Shown: piece after piece, positions 13,134 through 27,692 of the stretch
Layout: each line of letters begins with the position of its first letter
How positions within the stretch are numbered: position 1 is the stretch's first letter
Source: Escherichia coli
GTDB lineage: Bacteria > Pseudomonadota > Gammaproteobacteria > Enterobacterales > Enterobacteriaceae
NCBI RefSeq assembly: GCF_013315695.1
Contig: NZ_CP054353.1
DNA length: 64,000 nucleotides
Reading direction: 5' to 3' (one strand)
Notes under the pieces: model-generated
What the model was told of the DNA's origin: nothing
Databases searched by the model: none
What the model saw: only the letters and a program-made list of their open reading frames with translations
Translations under genes and position numbers: made by a program

Positions 13134-14733
<1,600 letters not shown>

Positions 14734-14942
14734 AATTCACCCTTCGTCTTGCGTTGATTTTCTAAGCATGGCGCTCAATTTAACCTTGAACCCAACATAT
14801 TTACAGAATATTACCCGCCGTGGTTAGCGAAAGCTGGCATTTGTTTTACTTTTTAGCCGCATAAAGTCAAAATTAAGAATCCGTTACGGCTTTCTGAAAA
14901 TCTTCAGCGGACCGGCGAGTATACCTGAAGAAAGGACGTTAG

Positions 14943-15920
14943 ATGCTTTTAGCTACGGCACTGTTAATTGTTGGTTTACTTTTGGTCGTTTACAGTGCCG
15001 ACCGCCTGGTTTTTGCCGCGTCTATTCTTTGCCGAACCTTTGGCATCCCGCCGCTAATCATCGGCATGACGGTGGTCAGTATTGGTACATCGTTACCAGA
15101 AATCATCGTCTCGCTTGCCGCGTCTCTGCACGAACAACGCGATTTAGCCGTTGGTACAGCCCTCGGCTCAAACATTATCAATATATTGCTGATCCTCGGT
15201 CTGGCTGCGCTGGTTCGTCCTTTTACCGTCCATTCTGATGTTCTACGCCGTGAATTACCCTTAATGTTGTTGGTCAGCGTGGTGGCCGGTTCCGTACTCT
15301 ATGACGGACAACTTAGTCGAAGCGATGGTATCTTTCTCCTCTTTCTGGCTGTGCTATGGCTGCTGTTCATTGTTAAACTTGCACGTCAGGCTGAACGTCA
15401 GGGGACTGACAGCCTGACCAGAGAGCAGCTTGCAGAGCTGCCGCGTGACGGCGGATTGCCCGTCGCGTTTTTATGGCTCGGCATTGCGCTTATCATCATG
15501 CCAGTGGCCACGCGGATGGTGGTTGATAACGCCACGGTGCTGGCGAATTACTTTGCCATCAGCGAGTTGACGATGGGTCTGACGGCAATTGCTATCGGAA
15601 CCAGCCTGCCGGAACTGGCAACCGCAATAGCGGGGGTTCGCAAAGGTGAAAACGACATTGCGGTCGGAAATATTATTGGCGCAAACATCTTTAATATTGT
15701 CATCGTGTTGGGTTTACCCGCGCTGATAACGCCAGGAGAGATTGATCCACTGGCGTACAGTCGTGACTACAGCGTGATGTTGCTGGTGAGCATTATTTTT
15801 GCGTTGCTGTGCTGGCGGCGCTCCCCGCAATCGGGCCGTGGTGTAGGGGTATTATTAACTGGCGGATTTATCGTATGGCTGGCGATGTTGTACTGGTTAT
15901 CGCCAATACTCGTTGAATAA
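14943..15920 (+). CDS. yrbG: CaCA-family Na+/Ca2+ exchanger-like inner membrane protein YrbG
   Basis: 325-aa ORF with two GTSLPE alpha-repeat motifs (SIGTSLPEIIVSLAAS and AIGTSLPELATAIAG). Confidence 0.92.
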   Translation: MLLATALLIVGLLLVVYSADRLVFAASILCRTFGIPPLIIGMTVVSIGTSLPEIIVSLAASLHEQRDLAVGTALGSNIINILLILGLAALVRPFTVHSDVLRRELPLMLLVSVVAGSVLYDGQLSRSDGIFLLFLAVLWLLFIVKLARQAERQGTDSLTREQLAELPRDGGLPVAFLWLGIALIIMPVATRMVVDNATVLANYFAISELTMGLTAIAIGTSLPELATAIAGVRKGENDIAVGNIIGANIFNIVIVLGLPALITPGEIDPLAYSRDYSVMLLVSIIFALLCWRRSPQSGRGVGVLLTGGFIVWLAMLYWLSPILVE

Positions 15921-20840: not shown

Positions 20841-21128
20841 ATGCAGCTCAACATTACCGGAAATAACGTCGAGATCACCGAGGCACTGCGCGAATTTGTT
20901 ACAGCCAAATTTGCCAAACTTGAGCAATATTTTGACCGAATCAACCAGGTCTATGTTGTTCTGAAAGTGGAGAAAGTCACCCACACCTCAGATGCAACAC
21001 TGCATGTAAACGGTGGTGAAATTCATGCCAGCGCGGAAGGTCAGGACATGTACGCTGCCATTGATGGCTTAATTGATAAGCTGGCACGCCAGTTGACCAA
21101 ACATAAAGATAAACTGAAACAACACTAA
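20841..21128 (+). CDS. hpf: Ribosome hibernation promoting factor
   Basis: Trimmed to MQLNITGNNVEITEALREFVTAKFAKLEQYFDRINQVYVVLKVEK... (95 aa). Confidence 0.93.
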   Translation: MQLNITGNNVEITEALREFVTAKFAKLEQYFDRINQVYVVLKVEKVTHTSDATLHVNGGEIHASAEGQDMYAAIDGLIDKLARQLTKHKDKLKQH

Positions 21129-21245
21129 TTGTCCGGGCAATTAGCATGTGCATGGCGGCCTGTTGTGCGGCACAACGGGCCATTTGTACGGTTAATGCTC
21201 CGAGCCTGTTCCACTGTTTGAGTGGGCAGGTTCTTAGGTGAAATT

Positions 21246-21737
21246 ATGACAAATAATAATACAACTCTACAGCTTAGCAGTGTTCTTAACAGGGAATGTA
21301 CGCGAAGCCGCGTCCACTGTCAGAGCAAAAAACGCGCCCTGGAAATCATCAGCGAGCTGGCGGCGAAACAACTTAGCCTGCCGCCTCAGGTGGTTTTTGA
21401 AGCTATCCTGACGCGGGAAAAAATGGGCAGTACCGGTATCGGCAATGGTATTGCCATTCCGCATGGCAAACTGGAAGAAGATACTCTGCGCGCCGTTGGC
21501 GTTTTCGTTCAGCTCGAAACGCCTATAGCTTTCGATGCCATCGACAACCAACCGGTGGATTTACTTTTTGCCCTGCTGGTGCCGGCAGACCAAACTAAAA
21601 CGCACCTGCATACTCTGTCACTGGTGGCGAAACGTCTGGCGGACAAAACCATCTGCCGCCGTTTACGCGCAGCCCAGAGCGATGAAGAGCTGTATCAAAT
21701 CATTACGGATACCGAAGGTACTCCGGATGAAGCGTAG
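21246..21737 (+). CDS. ptsN: Nitrogen-related PTS EIIA(Ntr) PtsN
   Basis: Trimmed to MTNNNTTLQLSSVLNRECTRSRVHCQSKKRALEIISELAAKQL...; phosphorylatable His in GNGIAIPHGK. Confidence 0.94.
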   Translation: MTNNNTTLQLSSVLNRECTRSRVHCQSKKRALEIISELAAKQLSLPPQVVFEAILTREKMGSTGIGNGIAIPHGKLEEDTLRAVGVFVQLETPIAFDAIDNQPVDLLFALLVPADQTKTHLHTLSLVAKRLADKTICRRLRAAQSDEELYQIITDTEGTPDEA

Positions 21738-21782
21738 TTATTCGGTAATGTCTCTTTTAGACGTTGTGAGGAGAAACAGTAC

Positions 21783-22637
21783 ATGGTACTGATGATCGTC
21801 AGCGGACGTTCAGGTTCAGGTAAATCTGTCGCCCTGCGTGCGCTGGAAGATATGGGTTTTTACTGCGTGGATAACCTTCCCGTAGTGTTGTTACCCGATC
21901 TGGCTCGAACTCTGGCCGATCGCGAGATTTCTGCCGCCGTCAGCATTGATGTTCGTAATATGCCGGAGTCACCAGAAATATTCGAACAGGCGATGAGTAA
22001 CCTACCTGACGCTTTCTCACCGCAACTACTGTTCCTGGATGCCGACCGTAATACCTTAATTCGTCGTTACAGTGACACGCGCCGACTGCATCCGCTTTCC
22101 AGCAAAAACCTGTCGCTGGAAAGTGCTATCGACAAAGAAAGCGATTTGCTGGAGCCTCTGCGTTCGCGAGCGGATCTGATTGTCGATACCTCAGAAATGT
22201 CCGTTCACGAGCTGGCTGAAATGCTGCGTACCCGTCTGCTGGGTAAACGTGAACGCGAACTGACCATGGTCTTTGAGTCTTTTGGCTTCAAACACGGTAT
22301 CCCTATCGATGCAGATTACGTCTTTGACGTGCGCTTCTTGCCGAACCCGCACTGGGATCCGAAACTGCGTCCAATGACAGGTCTGGATAAGCCTGTCGCC
22401 GCATTCCTCGACCGCCACACAGAAGTACACAATTTTATCTACCAGACGCGAAGCTATCTTGAGCTATGGTTACCTATGCTGGAAACCAACAACCGTAGCT
22501 ACCTGACGGTCGCCATTGGTTGTACCGGCGGGAAGCACCGTTCGGTGTATATTGCAGAGCAACTGGCAGACTACTTCCGCTCGCGCGGTAAAAACGTCCA
22601 GTCACGCCATCGTACGCTGGAAAAACGTAAACCATGA
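21783..22637 (+). CDS. rapZ: RNase adapter protein RapZ (YhbJ)
   Basis: 284-aa [43 protein letters not shown]...; P-loop GRSGSGKS. Confidence 0.94.
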
Positions 22638-22906
22638 CCGTCAAGCAAACTGTTGAAATCACAAACAAGCTGGGCATGCATGCCCGGCCTGCAATGAAGC
22701 TGTTTGAATTAATGCAGGGTTTTGACGCTGAAGTGCTGTTACGTAATGACGAAGGCACCGAGGCTGAAGCCAACAGCGTTATTGCGCTGCTGATGTTGGA
22801 TTCTGCCAAAGGACGGCAGATTGAAGTTGAAGCGACCGGTCCGCAGGAAGAGGAAGCACTGGCCGCCGTTATCGCCCTTTTTAACTCTGGTTTTGATGAA
22901 GATTAA
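22634..22906 (+). CDS. npr: HPr-like phosphocarrier NPr (PtsO)
   Basis: 90-aa [58 protein letters not shown]...; HPr fold with active His in GMHARPA. Confidence 0.93.
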
Positions 22907-23051
22907 TCTTCATCACTTTGACATTCAAATCCCTTCAAGCTCCCCCGGCAATAAGAAAAGCGCGTACTGAAATCGTTATCAATCAACGTCAATTGTACAT
23001 TTCGTGCGCTTTTTACTTTCAGAAGAACCTTAAGAAAACCTTAAGAAGCAT

Positions 23052-23068
23052 TGTTTAGATTTCGTTTA
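23052..23068 (+). promoter_or_regulatory. Candidate PhoP box upstream of yrbL
   Basis: Direct hexamer repeat TGTTTA-gattt-CGTTTA (5-nt spacer) about 50 bp upstream of the yrbL ATG; fits the (T/G)GTTTA-N5-(T/G)GTTTA PhoP consensus. yrbL as a PhoP-regulated gene is from prior knowledge. Confidence 0.5.
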
Positions 23069-23118
23069 AGTTAATCGACCATACTGGAGATCGTCAGAAA
23101 ATATTTCCAGGAGATGGC

Positions 23119-23751
23119 ATGATTCGCTTATCTGAACAAAGTCCCCTGGGCACCGGAAGACATCGGAAATGTTATGCGCATCCGGAAGATGCCCAACGCT
23201 GTATCAAGATTGTCTACCATCGTGGCGATGGTGGCGATAAAGAGATCCGCCGTGAGTTAAAGTACTACGCGCATCTTGGTCGTCGGTTAAAAGACTGGAG
23301 TGGAATACCGCGCTATCACGGTACCGTTGAGACGGATTGCGGAACCGGTTATGTCTACGATGTGATTGCAGATTTTGACGGCAAACCCTCCATTACGCTG
23401 ACCGAATTTGCTGAACAATGCCGTTACGAAGAAGACATTGCACAACTGCGCCAGATACTGAAACAGCTGAAGCGTTATTTGCAGGATAACCGTATCGTGA
23501 CGATGTCGCTGAAGCCGCAGAATATCCTCTGTCACCGCATCAGTGAGTCAGAGGTTATCCCCGTCGTCTGCGACAACATTGGTGAAAGCATATTGATTCC
23601 ACTGGCGACCTGGTCGAAGTGGTGTTGTCTGCGTAAGCAAGAGCGGTTATGGAAACGATTTATCGCCCAACCGGCGCTGACTATTGCCCTGCAGAAAGAT
23701 CTGCAACCTCGTGAAAGCAAAACGCTGACCCTCACTTCGCGCGAAGCTTAA
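23119..23751 (+). CDS. yrbL: PhoP-regulated protein YrbL (function unknown)
   Basis: 210-aa [63 protein letters not shown]... Confidence 0.9.
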
Positions 23752-24476
23752 TCCAGCTGGTGTTGTTGCATAAACGACTCACCGCCTAACTGATACATCT
23801 GCCGTAAAATCCACGCCTGACGGCTACGCACGTAGCCCGATGGCGCGGAGACTTTGAAACGAAGTGGATTAGGTAATACAGCTGCCAGTAATGCAGCTTC
23901 CGACCGGGTAAGCTTGCTCGCGGGTTTGTGGAAATAACGTTGTGCCGCAGCTTCGACGCCAAACACACCGTCGCCAAATTCGGCGATATTCAGGTAAACC
24001 GTCAGGATACGCTTTTTGCTCCAGACCGTTTCTATCCCCAGTGTTAATCCAGCTTCCAGCCCTTTTCGAACCCAGCTACGCCCATCCCATAAAAAGAGAT
24101 TTTTGGCAGTCTGCTGAGAAATCGTTGAAGCACCGCGAATACGGTTTTCATTGCGCTCGTTGTGCGCCAGGGCTTTCTCAATGGAAGCGACATCAAAGCC
24201 CCAGTGCTCAGGAAATGTCTGATCTTCTGCGGCAATCACCGCCAGTCCCATCCACGGCGAGATTTGATCCATACTGACCCAGTCAGAATGTGCCACGTAA
24301 CGAAAATTGCCATGCAGCCAGGCGCTGACTTGCCGCTCAACCATTACCGCTGAGAAGGGAACAGGCGCAACGCTAAACAACGCGATGCTCCCGCCCCAGA
24401 AAACAGCGAGGACAACCATTAACCGCAGAAGAAAACGGCGAACGAAACTAAACACCGTTAAGCGGCTTTTACTCAT
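23748..24476 (-). CDS. mtgA: Monofunctional peptidoglycan glycosyltransferase MtgA
   Basis: 242-aa [39 protein letters not shown]...; transglycosylase motifs [15 protein letters not shown] and [10 protein letters not shown]; its 3' end overlaps yrbL convergently by 4 bp. Confidence 0.94.
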
Positions 24477-25126
24477 TCAGCCAGTACCAGCACGCGGGAA
24501 ACCAGCTTATCAATGCCGCTCGCCGCTTCTGCAATGTTCTGCGCCAGCATATATGCCGGGGTGGTGACAATCTTATTGTCTTCATCAACCACGATATCAT
24601 CGACAGGACACGGCACATGCTCCGCGCCCATCTCTTCCAGCACTTCTGCGGTATCGATATCAGTACCGATGGTCAAACGCAGCGGGAAATCGAAAATTTT
24701 CGGCAGCATCGCCGGGGCAATACACATAAAACCAAGCGGTTTTCCGGCCTGATGCATCGCTTGTGCCAGCGCCTTTAATTCACGGTCAACGGTGCATTCG
24801 CGACCAAGACTGGCAAAATTGCTTAAATTCTTCGCCGCGCCAAACCCCCCCGGCACAATCAACGCATCCAGTTCAGCGGCATCGGCCTGAGCCAGAGGAC
24901 GGATTTCACCGCGCATTATTCGTGCCGCTTCAATCAGCACATTGCGCGTTTCCGTCATCGCTTCGCCCGTTAAATGGTTGATAACATCAACCTGCTGCTT
25001 ATCCGGTGCAAAGCAGACCGCCTGCGCACCGCTGCGTGAAATAGCTAACAACGTCAACACCGCTTCATGAATTTCAGAACCGTCATAGACGCCGCATCCG
25101 CTCAGAATTACGCCAATTTTCTTCAT
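24473..25126 (-). CDS. elbB: DJ-1/PfpI-family glyoxalase-like protein ElbB (YhbL)
   Basis: Trimmed to [55 protein letters not shown]... (217 aa). Confidence 0.92.
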
Positions 25127-25243
25127 TGTGATCATCCTTTCGCAATTGACTGAAACACATTAATTTTTTTAATAAAAATGCTACGCATCACACATTTAAC
25201 TGATTCATGTAACAAATCATTTAAGTTTTGCTATCTTAACTGC

Positions 25244-25364
25244 GTGCGGCCTGAAAAACAGTGCTGTGCCCTTGTAACTCATCATAATAATTTACGGCGC
25301 AGCCAAGATTTCCCTGGTGTTGGCGCAGTATTCGCGCACCCCGGTATAGCCGGGGTCATTTTTT
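25244..25364 (+). ncRNA. arcZ: ArcZ small RNA (SraH/RyhA)
   Basis: Sequence GTGCGGCCTGAAAAACAGTGCTGTGCCCTTGTAACTCATCATAATAATTTACGGCGCAGCCAAGATTTCCCTGGTGTTGGCGCAGTATTCGCGCACCCCGGT.TAGCCGGGGTCATTTTTT recognised as ArcZ; ends in CCCCGG/CCGGGG hairpin plus U-tract; 3' end overlaps the arcB stop region convergently. Confidence 0.9.
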
Positions 25365-27692
25365 AGTGGCTTTTGCCACCCACGCTTTCAGTACTTCTAC
25401 GTCGTGACGCCACTCTTCTTTCATCTCTTCAATCCATTCACCGACGTTATCTTCCCAGGCGGGAAGGTCAGGAGACTGAATTTGCTGACCCAACTGTTGC
25501 AGATGGCGTAACCCCACTGACCCCGCCGCACCTTTAATTTTATGTCCTTCCTCAACAATGCCTTTTTTATCCTGCGCCGTCAGATTCGACTCCAGCACGC
25601 TAACATATCCCGGCATCATCTTCTCAAATACCGCTAACCCGTCGGTGATCAGCTTCGGTCCTACAAGTTCGAGATACTGTTCCAGCATGGGAATATCGAG
25701 CAATGCTTCTGATTTACTGTTCTCTTCTGTCGTCACCGTACTCTCCTCATCATCCTGGGTATCCCAGAATTTCTTGATCATCGCGGTTAGCGCCGGAACA
25801 GAAAGCGGCTTACTCAGCACATCATCCATTCCAGCATTGAGGTACTCTTGTTTGTCTTTCAGCACGTTAGCGGTTAAGGCCACCAGCGGTGGTAAATCCT
25901 CGCGCGGATAACGCTTCGTCAGTTCACGAGAGATATCCAGCCCGGTCATATCTGGCAACTGAATATCCAGCAACACTAGGTCGTATTCGCCCGGTTTAAA
26001 CATCTCCAGCGCCGCCTTGCCGGTCATGGCGACATCAACGCTGTTACCTAACTTTTCCAGCACAGAGCGCGCGACAATCACGTTCAGTTCAATGTCTTCC
26101 ACCAGCAGCACATTCAGCGCCGGTAAAGGCATATCGTCTTCATCAAACGCATCATCAACCTCTTCTGCTACCGACGGTGCGTGGATCGTCAACGTAAAGG
26201 TTGAACCTTTGCCCTGTTCGCTGGTAACCGTAATATCGCCGCCCATATTTTTCGCCAGACGACGAGAAACGGCCAGACCAATACCGGTACCGGTGGCAGG
26301 TTTACCACCATGACTGTCTTTCACCTGGTAATACATGGCGAAGATTTTATCCAGCTCATCCTGCGGAATGCCGATACCAGAGTCTTCCACTTCAAAATGC
26401 AGCATATCGCCTTCATCGTAGCGCACGCGCACGGTAACCTGGCCTTGCTGAGTGAATTTGACGGCGTTACTGATGAGGTTCCACAGGATCTGCCGTAAAC
26501 GCGTCCCGTCGGTAATGACCTGATGCGGTAATGGCAGCGTCGGCTCCAGATTAAAGCGCAATCCTTTTTGTTGCGCCTGCAAGGCGGAGAGATTTTCCAG
26601 ATCGGCAAGGAAACTGGTGAAATCAACCGGCTGATTATCAAGCTGGACCTTGCGCCGTTCCATCTTATCCATGTCGATAATATCGTTGAAGATATTCCCC
26701 AGCGTGACAGCCGATACATGGATGGTTTTGAGATATTTTTCCTGCTCGGCGGTGAGTTCAGTATCCAGCAGAATGCGGCTCAGGCCGACGATACCGTTCA
26801 GCGGTGTACGCAATTCGTGACTGATGGTGGAGATAAACGTCGTTTTGTCGCGGCTGGCGCGTTCAAGCGCATCCTGATACCGCTTACGCTCGGTAATGTC
26901 GCGACCAAAGCCCATCAAACCGTGACGTTTACCCACGCGGTCGTAGTACGGCACTTTACGAATTTCAAAGCAGGCTTTGCGTCCGTCGGGATAATCCAGC
27001 CACTGCTCATAGGTCAGTGACACATTATGACGGAACACTTTTTCATCGGTTTCAATGACTTTCGCAGCGGCTTCCGGTGAGTAAACATCAGCAGGTTTCA
27101 GGTGAACCAGTTGTTTTTCGCTTTTTCCGGTCAGCAGCTCCATCGCGCGGTTACAGCCGGAAAACTCTTTATCTTCGTTACGATAAAAAACCAGGTCGGG
27201 TGAAGCGTCAAGGAAGGAACGTAAGAATGAGGATTGCTGCTCGAGCTGAATTTGTGTCTCTTCGCGCTCTTTGATTTCAATTTTCAGTTGGCCGAAGGTT
27301 TCCTGCAGTTCTGCTTCCGCTTTTTCACGAACGGCGATTTCCTGATTTAGCTGGGCAATATTATCTTTTAACTGAACGTTGAGGCTCAAATCGCGCTCGC
27401 GCATCTCCTCCAGTTTTTGCACCAGTCGTGACAGACGTTGTCGTGACTCCTCCAGTTGCTCGACGACCACCGATAGAAAGTAGACCGCCCACGGCGTAAT
27501 CAGCAAACCAAAGAAGATAGAACGAATAACATCAATGCTTTCGACCTGGCCATGCAGCACCATGGTTACCGCCATTTGTACCACAATGGCAAGAACGACG
27601 AGGGCCAGCGCCAGCAACATTGAGAAGCGCACCAGACCTAACTTCATCATCAGGTCAACATAATACTGCGCCAGCAGACGAATTTGCTTCAT
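25356..27692 (-). CDS. arcB: Aerobic respiration control sensor kinase ArcB
   Basis: 778-aa ORF MKQIRLLAQYYVDLMMKLGLVRFSMLLALALVVLAIVVQMAV...; PAS, HisKA (ISHELRTPLNGI), receiver and HPt domains. Confidence 0.97.
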   Translation of the reverse strand: MKQIRLLAQYYVDLMMKLGLVRFSMLLALALVVLAIVVQMAVTMVLHGQVESIDVIRSIFFGLLITPWAVYFLSVVVEQLEESRQRLSRLVQKLEEMRERDLSLNVQLKDNIAQLNQEIAVREKAEAELQETFGQLKIEIKEREETQIQLEQQSSFLRSFLDASPDLVFYRNEDKEFSGCNRAMELLTGKSEKQLVHLKPADVYSPEAAAKVIETDEKVFRHNVSLTYEQWLDYPDGRKACFEIRKVPYYDRVGKRHGLMGFGRDITERKRYQDALERASRDKTTFISTISHELRTPLNGIVGLSRILLDTELTAEQEKYLKTIHVSAVTLGNIFNDIIDMDKMERRKVQLDNQPVDFTSFLADLENLSALQAQQKGLRFNLEPTLPLPHQVITDGTRLRQILWNLISNAVKFTQQGQVTVRVRYDEGDMLHFEVEDSGIGIPQDELDKIFAMYYQVKDSHGGKPATGTGIGLAVSRRLAKNMGGDITVTSEQGKGSTFTLTIHAPSVAEEVDDAFDEDDMPLPALNVLLVEDIELNVIVARSVLEKLGNSVDVAMTGKAALEMFKPGEYDLVLLDIQLPDMTGLDISRELTKRYPREDLPPLVALTANVLKDKQEYLNAGMDDVLSKPLSVPALTAMIKKFWDTQDDEESTVTTEENSKSEALLDIPMLEQYLELVGPKLITDGLAVFEKMMPGYVSVLESNLTAQDKKGIVEEGHKIKGAAGSVGLRHLQQLGQQIQSPDLPAWEDNVGEWIEEMKEEWRHDVEVLKAWVAKATKK

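Follow-up and report, generated by a model that had tools for sequence, protein, structure and literature searches.

yrbL of Escherichia coli: a PhoP-activated gene with a predicted BasR box, a protein-kinase-like product and a 3' end that overlaps convergent mtgA

The yrbL promoter has been described in several enterobacteria, and PhoP activation of the gene and the layout of its promoter are already published for E. coli, Shigella and Salmonella. In Salmonella, yrbL has a single S1-mapped start that depends on PhoP and on low Mg2+ and gives a 32-nt leader, and the promoter was classed as architecture I, with one footprinted direct box at a distance of 11 nt from a CATACT -10 hexamer (PMC3335776). 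In Shigella flexneri, whose box is of the K-12 type, the yrbL promoter is shifted by phosphorylated PhoP in EMSA, and by microarray the deletion of phoPQ leaves yrbL expression at 0.02-fold, i.e. a 50-fold drop (PMC5775216). An E. coli yrbL reporter responds to optogenetically controlled PhoP with low sensitivity and high noise, and among the reporters tested in that 2026 study it was the least PhoP-sensitive and the noisiest (PMC13215669). Thus, since yrbL is the reporter of lowest sensitivity, inputs other than PhoP matter. For two decades, yrbL has served to report on the PhoP regulon (Minagawa 2003 and Zwir 2005, both as cited in later work; Zwir 2012; Lin 2018; the 2026 single-cell study).

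One such input is PmrA (BasR). Direct repression of the yrbL promoter by PmrA was shown for E. coli in Zwir 2005, according to the account of Zwir et al. 2012 (PMC3335776), and Harari et al. (2009) described the PhoP and PmrA sites of E. coli and Salmonella yrbL as a 'bi-fan' motif, in which the box-to-box distance is ~24 bp in Salmonella yrbL and ~38 bp in pmrD (PMC2681069). In iron-adapted E. coli B, increases of basR, eptA, arn and pmrR were always accompanied by a down-regulation of yrbL that ranked with the strongest (PMC13405929), and repression by Fur has been reported as well (PMC4676285). The 3' end of the gene has also been listed: yrbL-mtgA is one of the 165 convergent excludons that ExcludonFinder detected in half or more of 58 MG1655 transcriptomes (PMC12288877), so that the overlap of the two transcripts is already catalogued. 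The YrbL protein is termed uncharacterised in papers of 2024-2026 (PMC11842939; PMC13215669).

We analyzed the yrbL locus in a 64-kb stretch of E. coli DNA (64,000 nt; hereafter the window). The coordinates of the features are collected in the table. The 2-kb stretch around yrbL had a match in 5425 of 5426 complete E. coli genomes and was 100% identical to that of several clinical isolates. The yrbL product matched the YrbL family over its full length and above the curated cut-offs, both with Pfam PF10707 'PhoP regulatory network protein YrbL' (E=3e-66, 223 bits, cut-off 31.5) and with the NCBIfam equivalog NF007671 (E=3e-118, 393 bits, cut-off 227, residues 1-210 of 210 covered). It shares 98% protein identity with K-12 YrbL (b3207), from which it differs by four amino-acid substitutions. 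A sequence-only reading of this DNA had named yrbL and mtgA and called the former a poorly characterised PhoPQ-responsive gene; the names agree with the profile matches and the RefSeq annotation, and the description holds, as PhoP control is published and the protein is still termed uncharacterised. Its further statement that yrbL is wedged between the nitrogen-PTS operon and peptidoglycan genes is right as to mtgA and loose as to the plural, since elbB is a glyoxalase-like gene.

Features of the yrbL locus, with positions numbered from the first letter of the window
Feature	Position	Strand	Description	Basis
Gene order			rpoN-hpf-ptsN-rapZ-npr, then yrbL, then convergent mtgA-elbB, then arcZ/arcB	RefSeq annotation
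npr (ptsO)	22634..22906	+	last gene of the rpoN-hpf-ptsN-rapZ-npr operon, 5' of yrbL	ORF; PF00381 PTS-HPr E=4e-25; RefSeq
Long hairpin (GAAAAGCGCG ... CGCGCUUUUU) followed by a U run	22955..23014	+	terminator-like structure at which npr transcripts would end in this strain	
Conserved block TTGTACATTTyGTGCkCTTT	22993..23012	.	5' of the BasR box	
PmrA/BasR box CTTAAG-aaaac-CTTAAG (CTTAAGaaaacCTTAAG)	23029..23045	+	predicted repressor site, 6 nt 5' of the PhoP box	
PhoP box TGTTTA-gattt-CGTTTA (TGTTTAgatttCGTTTA)	23052..23068	+	direct repeat overlapping the -35 region; predicted site	
-10 hexamer CATACT	23080..23085	+	11 nt past the PhoP box; invariant in 12/12 loci	
Transcription start region, inferred	23088..23093	+	5' leader of ~26-31 nt	position of the -10 and the 32-nt Salmonella leader (PMC3335776)
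Shine-Dalgarno AGGAG	23109..23113	+	5 nt 5' of the ATG	sequence reading; conserved in Escherichia loci
yrbL CDS	23119..23751	+	210 aa, minimal protein-kinase-like protein (predicted)	
TTAA common to the yrbL stop (TAA, +) and the mtgA stop (TAA, -)	23748..23751	.	4 nt	
mtgA CDS	23748..24476	-	242 aa, monofunctional peptidoglycan glycosyltransferase, convergent with yrbL	PF00912 E=9e-54; RefSeq
elbB	24473..25126	-	upstream gene of the elbB-mtgA unit; elbB stop overlaps mtgA start (ATGA)	RefSeq mapping; ORF list

The PhoP box consists of the half-sites TGTTTA (23052..23057) and CGTTTA (23063..23068), separated by the spacer gattt. It had been placed about 50 bp upstream of yrbL, and exactly 50 nt lie between the box and the ATG at 23119, the promoter reading ...cat TGTTTA gattt CGTTTA agttaatcgac CATACT ggagatcgtcagaaaatatttcc AGGAG atggc ATG. 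The window was scanned with a strict definition of the half-site, (T/G)GTTTA, and with a wider one taken from the published submotifs (PMC3335776). With the strict definition (KGTTTA-N5-KGTTTA) the box has one mismatch, and the two such sites found in 64 kb, against 0.67 expected, are not above chance. With the wider definition, (C/T/G)GTTTA-N5-(C/T/G)GTTTA, it alone matches in the 64 kb, for an expectation of 0.06. Twelve loci were compared, drawn from E. coli, E. albertii, E. whittamii, cryptic clades of Escherichia, Citrobacter and Salmonella arizonae, and the box, the CATACT hexamer and the 11 nt that separate them are conserved among these. Thus, since the box is placed as expected relative to the -10 and is conserved between genera, it stands well above chance. 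A second PhoP-like site at 14962..14978, also with one mismatch, lies within a coding sequence just past the start codon and was rejected as a chance match.

The repeat lies in direct orientation on the strand of yrbL and overlaps the -35 region, and its 11 nt to the -10 agree with the distance of about one helical turn (11-12 nt) that is characteristic of architecture I (Zwir et al. 2012). A consensus scan found no sigma-70 -35/-10 pair at the yrbL promoter, as expected, because the promoter is activator-dependent. In the proposed mechanism, low Mg2+, antimicrobial peptides or acid would cause PhoQ to phosphorylate PhoP, which would then bind the repeat at 23052..23068. The PhoP site would take the place of a -35 element, 11 nt 5' of CATACT, and RNA polymerase would be recruited in a class II manner as in architecture I (Zwir et al. 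2012). The PhoP control of yrbL that had been proposed from the box is borne out by the published Shigella EMSA and expression data and by the start-site mapping in Salmonella (PMC5775216; PMC3335776).

The box of this strain (TGTTTAgatttCGTTTA) differs from that of K-12 (TGTTTAggtttTGTTTA). There are three differences between the window and K-12 in the 71 nt that span both boxes, two of them within the 17-nt PhoP box and one between the boxes. The changes within the PhoP box, from K-12 to the window, are G to A in the spacer and, in the second half-site, T to C at its first base (TGTTTA to CGTTTA). A rival reading would be that these two changes leave the box weakened or non-functional in this strain and that yrbL has drifted out of the PhoP regulon. 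The mismatch to the strict pattern, with which the site is not above chance, fits such a loss, as does an Escherichia lineage (L007) in which the first half-site is further degraded, to CGTTGA. Against it, the window's promoter allele is found exactly in 1190 of 5425 complete E. coli genomes (22%), i.e. it is a common standing variant, and neither the GTTTA cores nor the spacing nor the -10 is disrupted. The half-site (C/T/G)GTTTA also falls within the published submotifs. Moreover, CGTTTA half-sites are present in the footprinted yrbL box of Salmonella (PMC3335776) and in the EMSA-positive yoaE box of Shigella (PMC5775216), and by analogy with these boxes the CGTTTA-type allele is expected to work. 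We therefore consider loss of PhoP control in this strain very improbable. The natural variation of the box, with the CGTTTA allele in 22% of the genomes, offers a ready-made test of half-site tuning of the regulon output.

The scan for PmrA/BasR sites gave one zero-mismatch match to YTTAAK-N5-YTTAAK in the window, located just upstream of the PhoP box, and 0 of 100 shuffles gave a match. Its core TTAAGAAAACCTTAA is conserved across genera in the 12 loci, and the distance between the two boxes is 23 bp from start to start. This box is absent from the sequence-only reading. Through the box at 23029..23045, BasS-BasR, which senses Fe3+/Al3+, would repress the yrbL promoter, most simply by exclusion or mis-positioning of PhoP, and yrbL would accordingly be expressed at low Mg2+ and damped at high iron. 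The coupling of PhoP to PmrA by PmrD is weak in E. coli. The BasR input at yrbL should therefore report mostly Fe3+ and not feedback from PhoP. With respect to Fur, the site near the yrbL promoter that comes closest to the 19-mer consensus agrees with it at 11/19 positions, a score that 340 other sites in the window equal or exceed. The sole hit of an Rfam scan (21000..27000, E<=1) was ArcZ, with no known sRNA or leader at yrbL.

Upstream of the two boxes, the hairpin 3' of npr has a predicted RNA fold of -22 kcal/mol (z=-2.2) and was missed by a simple terminator scan, its loop being too long. Within it lies a block in which 18 of 20 positions are invariant in the 12 loci of Escherichia, Citrobacter and Salmonella, whereas the sequence 5' of it is unalignable. 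The hairpin was rejected as the cause of this conservation, as its 5' arm is not conserved in K-12 or in other genera and there is no covariation. The block may be a further protein-binding site.

At the 3' end of yrbL, the stop codon TAA at 23749..23751 (+) and the stop codon TAA of mtgA, read from 23750 down to 23748 (-), share the four nucleotides TTAA. The 4-bp overlap had been noted from the letters; the sequence and the open reading frames confirm it, and it is the same in the RefSeq annotations of K-12 and of a genome identical to this one. A consensus terminator scan of 22600..24600 found no terminator downstream of either stop codon; its two hits lie inside rapZ/npr and inside mtgA, the latter on the sense strand of mtgA itself. 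Since there is no intrinsic terminator 3' of either stop, the termination of both transcripts is probably Rho-dependent or unstructured. With four shared nucleotides and no intrinsic terminator on either side, each transcript runs antisense into the other gene. The earlier claim that the two transcripts must read into one another is thus a geometrical necessity, and it fits the listing of the pair in the MG1655 excludon set (PMC12288877).

The overlap is a feature of Escherichia. The shared TTAA occurs in each of the eight Escherichia sequences that we compared, which range from E. coli to E. albertii, and in neither Citrobacter nor Salmonella. In Citrobacter and Salmonella arizonae, yrbL and mtgA are separated by gaps of 7-108 nt, some with REP-like sequence or an extra gene, and the gap in S. 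Typhimurium is 37+28 nt, i.e. 65 nt (PMC3261920). The C-terminal lengths of YrbL and MtgA are kept across the genera compared, and therefore the spacer alone differs between them. In our judgement, the overlap is most probably a by-product of the loss of the intergenic spacer in the Escherichia lineage and not a designed device.

The alternative is that the overlap is a functional excludon, in which PhoP-induced transcription of yrbL would proceed antisense through mtgA and lower MtgA, by collision of polymerases or by cleavage of the RNA duplex by RNase III, with the reverse effect of mtgA transcription on yrbL. If this were the case, the sensing of low Mg2+ and antimicrobial peptides would be coupled to the synthesis of peptidoglycan glycan chains. 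The shared coding nucleotides, the lack of a predicted intrinsic terminator on either side, the place of yrbL-mtgA in the core excludome of MG1655 (PMC12288877) and the retention of the exact TTAA in 8/8 Escherichia sequences are what such a device would show, and the RNA fold predicted for the + strand immediately 3' of the yrbL stop is unusually stable (z=-3.5). However, Salmonella and Citrobacter keep the PhoP control of yrbL despite their gaps of 7-108 nt. As PhoP control predates the overlap and persists without it, the overlap is not part of the ancestral design. In addition, most of the 165 such pairs in E. coli have no demonstrated function, and our literature search found neither reciprocal-expression data for yrbL and mtgA nor a report linking mtgA to PhoP. 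Thus, since PhoP control is older than the overlap and no report connecting mtgA with PhoP was found, a functional excludon is unlikely. The loss of the spacer as a neutral event is the reading that we prefer, and the Escherichia-specific fusion of the stop codons and the 65-nt spacer of Salmonella together provide a clean comparison for the regulatory effect of convergent overlaps.

We then turn to the product. A phmmer search against 1.84 billion representatives gave ~1000 clusters, mostly of stand-alone proteins of ~200 aa. The AlphaFold2 model of YrbL, built with 123 sequences, had a pLDDT of 95.1 and a pTM of 0.88, and in this model the protein adopts a bilobal kinase fold. Foldseek with the model gave 978 PDB hits at E<=1e-3, the top ones being CASK, CaMKII, STK17B and PknB; the first of these, CASK, is a pseudokinase. 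There was no solved structure for the YrbL family among the PDB matches at the sequence level, which were weak kinase matches only.

The residues by which protein kinases hold nucleotide and metal are all found in YrbL: the Gly-rich loop (G11xG13), K30 (the VAIK Lys), E46 (the aC Glu), N135 (the catalytic-loop Asn) and D152 (the DFG Asp). Among 111 diverse family members, K30 is conserved in 109, E46 in 105, N135 in 110 and D152 in 97, and the conservation of G13, K30, E46, N135, D152 and G155 is 87-99%. The catalytic Asp of the HRD motif is missing from E. coli YrbL, which has S130 at this position, aligned with the Asp of the HxD motif in STK17B (VTMSLKPQN vs VHLDLKPQN). Asp occupies the position in 44 of the 111 family members, and in the enterobacterial YrbL clade it is taken by Ser, Thr, Asn or Ala. 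YrbL would thus be a minimal protein-kinase-like protein of the cytoplasm, in which the nucleotide- and metal-binding residues are kept and the catalytic Asp is lacking. The model and the conserved residues suggest that it most likely binds ATP and Mg2+.

It may be asked whether YrbL is nevertheless a catalytically active kinase, of proteins or of small molecules, in which another residue or the substrate serves as the base in place of the HRD Asp. The near invariance of K30, E46, N135, D152 and the Gly-rich loop throughout the family would agree with such activity, as would the presence of Asp at the HRD position in 40% of family members and the occurrence of active minimal kinases (Rio1/2, NleH1, Bud32 and HopBF1) among the closest folds. 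Selection for resistance to the antimicrobial peptide TAT-RasGAP317-326 yielded the YrbL mutations E42G and V149L (PMC11842939). In the model, E42 sits one turn ahead of E46 on the aC helix, and V149 belongs to the strand that leads up to D152, so that both mutations adjoin the predicted active site. On the other side, the enterobacterial proteins carry S, T, N or A at the position of the catalytic base, CASK, the top structural match, is a pseudokinase, and no report of an activity, substrate or phenotype was found in the literature. An active kinase is possible, and we put its chances somewhat below even. We prefer the reading that YrbL, being likely to bind ATP and Mg2+ but having no canonical catalytic base, is most probably an atypical kinase or a pseudokinase that binds ATP; its inferred function is related to the envelope.

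The hints at function are envelope-related and consist of the peptide-selected mutations and of an effect on cephalothin, in that multicopy yrbL gives higher cephalothin resistance (PMC8579933). Deletion of yrbL had no effect on PhoP signalling, and none on Shigella invasion (PMC5775216). The distant homologues of YrbL are encoded by stand-alone genes in unrelated neighbourhoods, and no consistent partner was found in their genomic context; therefore, no functional inference was drawn from it. One of these homologues adjoins a gene of the Kdo/LPS-kinase family, one is fused to a methyltransferase, and there are several tandem duplications. YrbL is one of the few core products of the PhoP regulon without an assigned function, and narrowing it to a kinase-like protein gives concrete mutants.

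Taken together, these data make us highly confident that yrbL forms a transcription unit of its own within the ancestral PhoP regulon of enterobacteria, and this degree of confidence applies to the whole explanation at once, i.e. PhoP activation, BasR repression, a kinase-like product and a probably neutral 3' overlap. The feature is real and was correctly interpreted in the sequence-only reading, and both claims made for it, PhoP control and convergent transcript overlap, are already in the literature. The results support the view that this reading was incomplete and not wrong, as it missed the BasR box, the kinase-like protein and the restriction of the overlap to Escherichia. Our analysis adds the BasR box, the frequency of the promoter allele, the Escherichia-specific overlap, the active-site anatomy of YrbL and the conserved 20-nt block upstream of the promoter. 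A more far-reaching joint reading would be that the loss of the spacer in Escherichia brought PhoP/BasR antisense input into mtgA, and that YrbL is an ATP-binding kinase-like protein without the catalytic Asp whose action is on the envelope. If the antisense input were real, low Mg2+ or antimicrobial-peptide stress would tune glycan-chain polymerisation through convergent transcription, and if both parts were true, the locus would act as a small module that adapts the envelope in two layers. We regard this combination as quite improbable.

In comparison with known systems, the locus is closest to K-12 yrbL (b3207), with which it shares the synteny, the single direct PhoP box over the -35 region, the 11 nt to CATACT and the PmrA box upstream, and the promoter fits the architecture I group of Zwir et al. 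2012, which comprises mgtA, phoP, slyB, pmrD and yrbL. It also resembles the Salmonella pmrD promoter, a 'bi-fan' in which transcription is driven from a PhoP box and repressed through a PmrA box immediately 5' of it, whereas the yrbL product, unlike that of pmrD, is no connector protein. With respect to its 3' end, yrbL-mtgA resembles the convergent excludons of the ExcludonFinder E. coli core set and of the Listeria excludon concept, in that converging neighbours have overlapping transcripts (PMC12288877 for the transcripts), but here the overlap reaches the coding sequences, and the intergenic distance is zero compared with a mean of 95 nt. The modelled protein resembles Rio1/Rio2, Bud32, NleH1/OspG and HopBF1, all with a small kinase-like fold of ~200 aa and a truncated C-lobe and with the Gly-rich loop, VAIK Lys, aC Glu, catalytic-loop Asn and DFG-type Asp; YrbL differs from these minimal kinases in its identity of 10-18%, in the Ser that replaces the HRD Asp, and in its family-specific C-terminal helices.

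Upstream of the yrbL promoter, a 20-nt block was found to be invariant at 18 of its 20 positions among the Escherichia, Citrobacter and Salmonella loci compared, and the sequence 5' of it could not be aligned among them. In the window strain, this block constitutes the 3' arm of the terminator-like npr hairpin. The possibility that the hairpin is the reason for the conservation was considered and rejected, since conservation does not extend to its 5' arm and, in C. amalonaticus, a separate terminator is present further upstream. The block may be a binding site for another regulator.

Coordinates of the sequence features, in the window unless another locus is named
Feature	Coordinates	Strand	Sequence	Position or assignment
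Conserved block, 20 nt	22993..23012		TTGTACATTTyGTGCkCTTT	Lies ~18 nt before the BasR box
Perfect palindrome, 22 bp	22894..22915		TGATGAAGATT|AATCTTCATCA	Centred on the npr stop codon
Near-perfect palindrome, 34 nt	L013:2460-2493		CCATACTAAATTTATGTGCATAAATTTAGTATGG	yrbL promoter and leader of Salmonella enterica subsp. arizonae
Imperfect inverted repeat, 19 nt	23810..23849	+		Within the mtgA 3' region
Second PhoP-like site, 1 mismatch	14962..14978		TGTTAATTGTTGGTTTA	Just within the CDS starting at 14943
PmrA-like site, 1 mismatch	14861..14877			~100 nt upstream of the second PhoP-like site
ArcZ sRNA gene	25244..25351			Rfam RF00081, 118.6 bits

Two palindromes were also observed, one in the window and one in S. 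arizonae. The one at the npr stop codon reads GACGAAGATTAATCTTCGTC in three Escherichia lineages (L004-L006), where a compensatory double change preserves the palindrome; neither Citrobacter nor Salmonella has it. It may be either a hairpin in the RNA at the 3' end of npr or a protein-binding site. The palindrome of S. arizonae takes in the -10 hexamer, extends almost to the yrbL start codon and is found at none of the Escherichia or Citrobacter loci, and it could be either a leader hairpin or an operator.

Past the other end of yrbL, the plus strand of 23740..23900 showed unusually strong folding (z=-3.5), and the minus strand beyond the stop of mtgA did not (z=-0.4). The inverted repeat, which lies 60-100 nt downstream of the yrbL stop, has a perfect GGCUAC/GUAGCC core (23822..23837) and is not followed by a U tract. 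Its role could be to stabilise the 3' end of yrbL or to define it.

Within the YrbL family, some proteins of ~400 aa (P0121, P0125, P0242 and P0263) are tandem duplications with two YrbL domains, and a further member (P0143) has a SAM methyltransferase fused to its N-terminus. One metagenomic context has the YrbL-family gene divergent from a Kdo/LPS-kinase-family gene (PF06293). A 420-bp contig (L014, NZ_JUET01000135.1) from the publicly available assembly labelled 'Tannerella forsythia ATCC 43037' codes for YrbL residues 1-129 with 98% identity to E. coli, and is almost certainly E. coli contamination.

Elsewhere in the window, the PmrA-like site is intergenic, between the divergent ORFs 13924..14733 (-) and 14943..15920 (+), and both this match and the second PhoP-like one are probably due to chance. 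The ArcZ gene is ordinary, its position between elbB and arcB being the same as in K-12.
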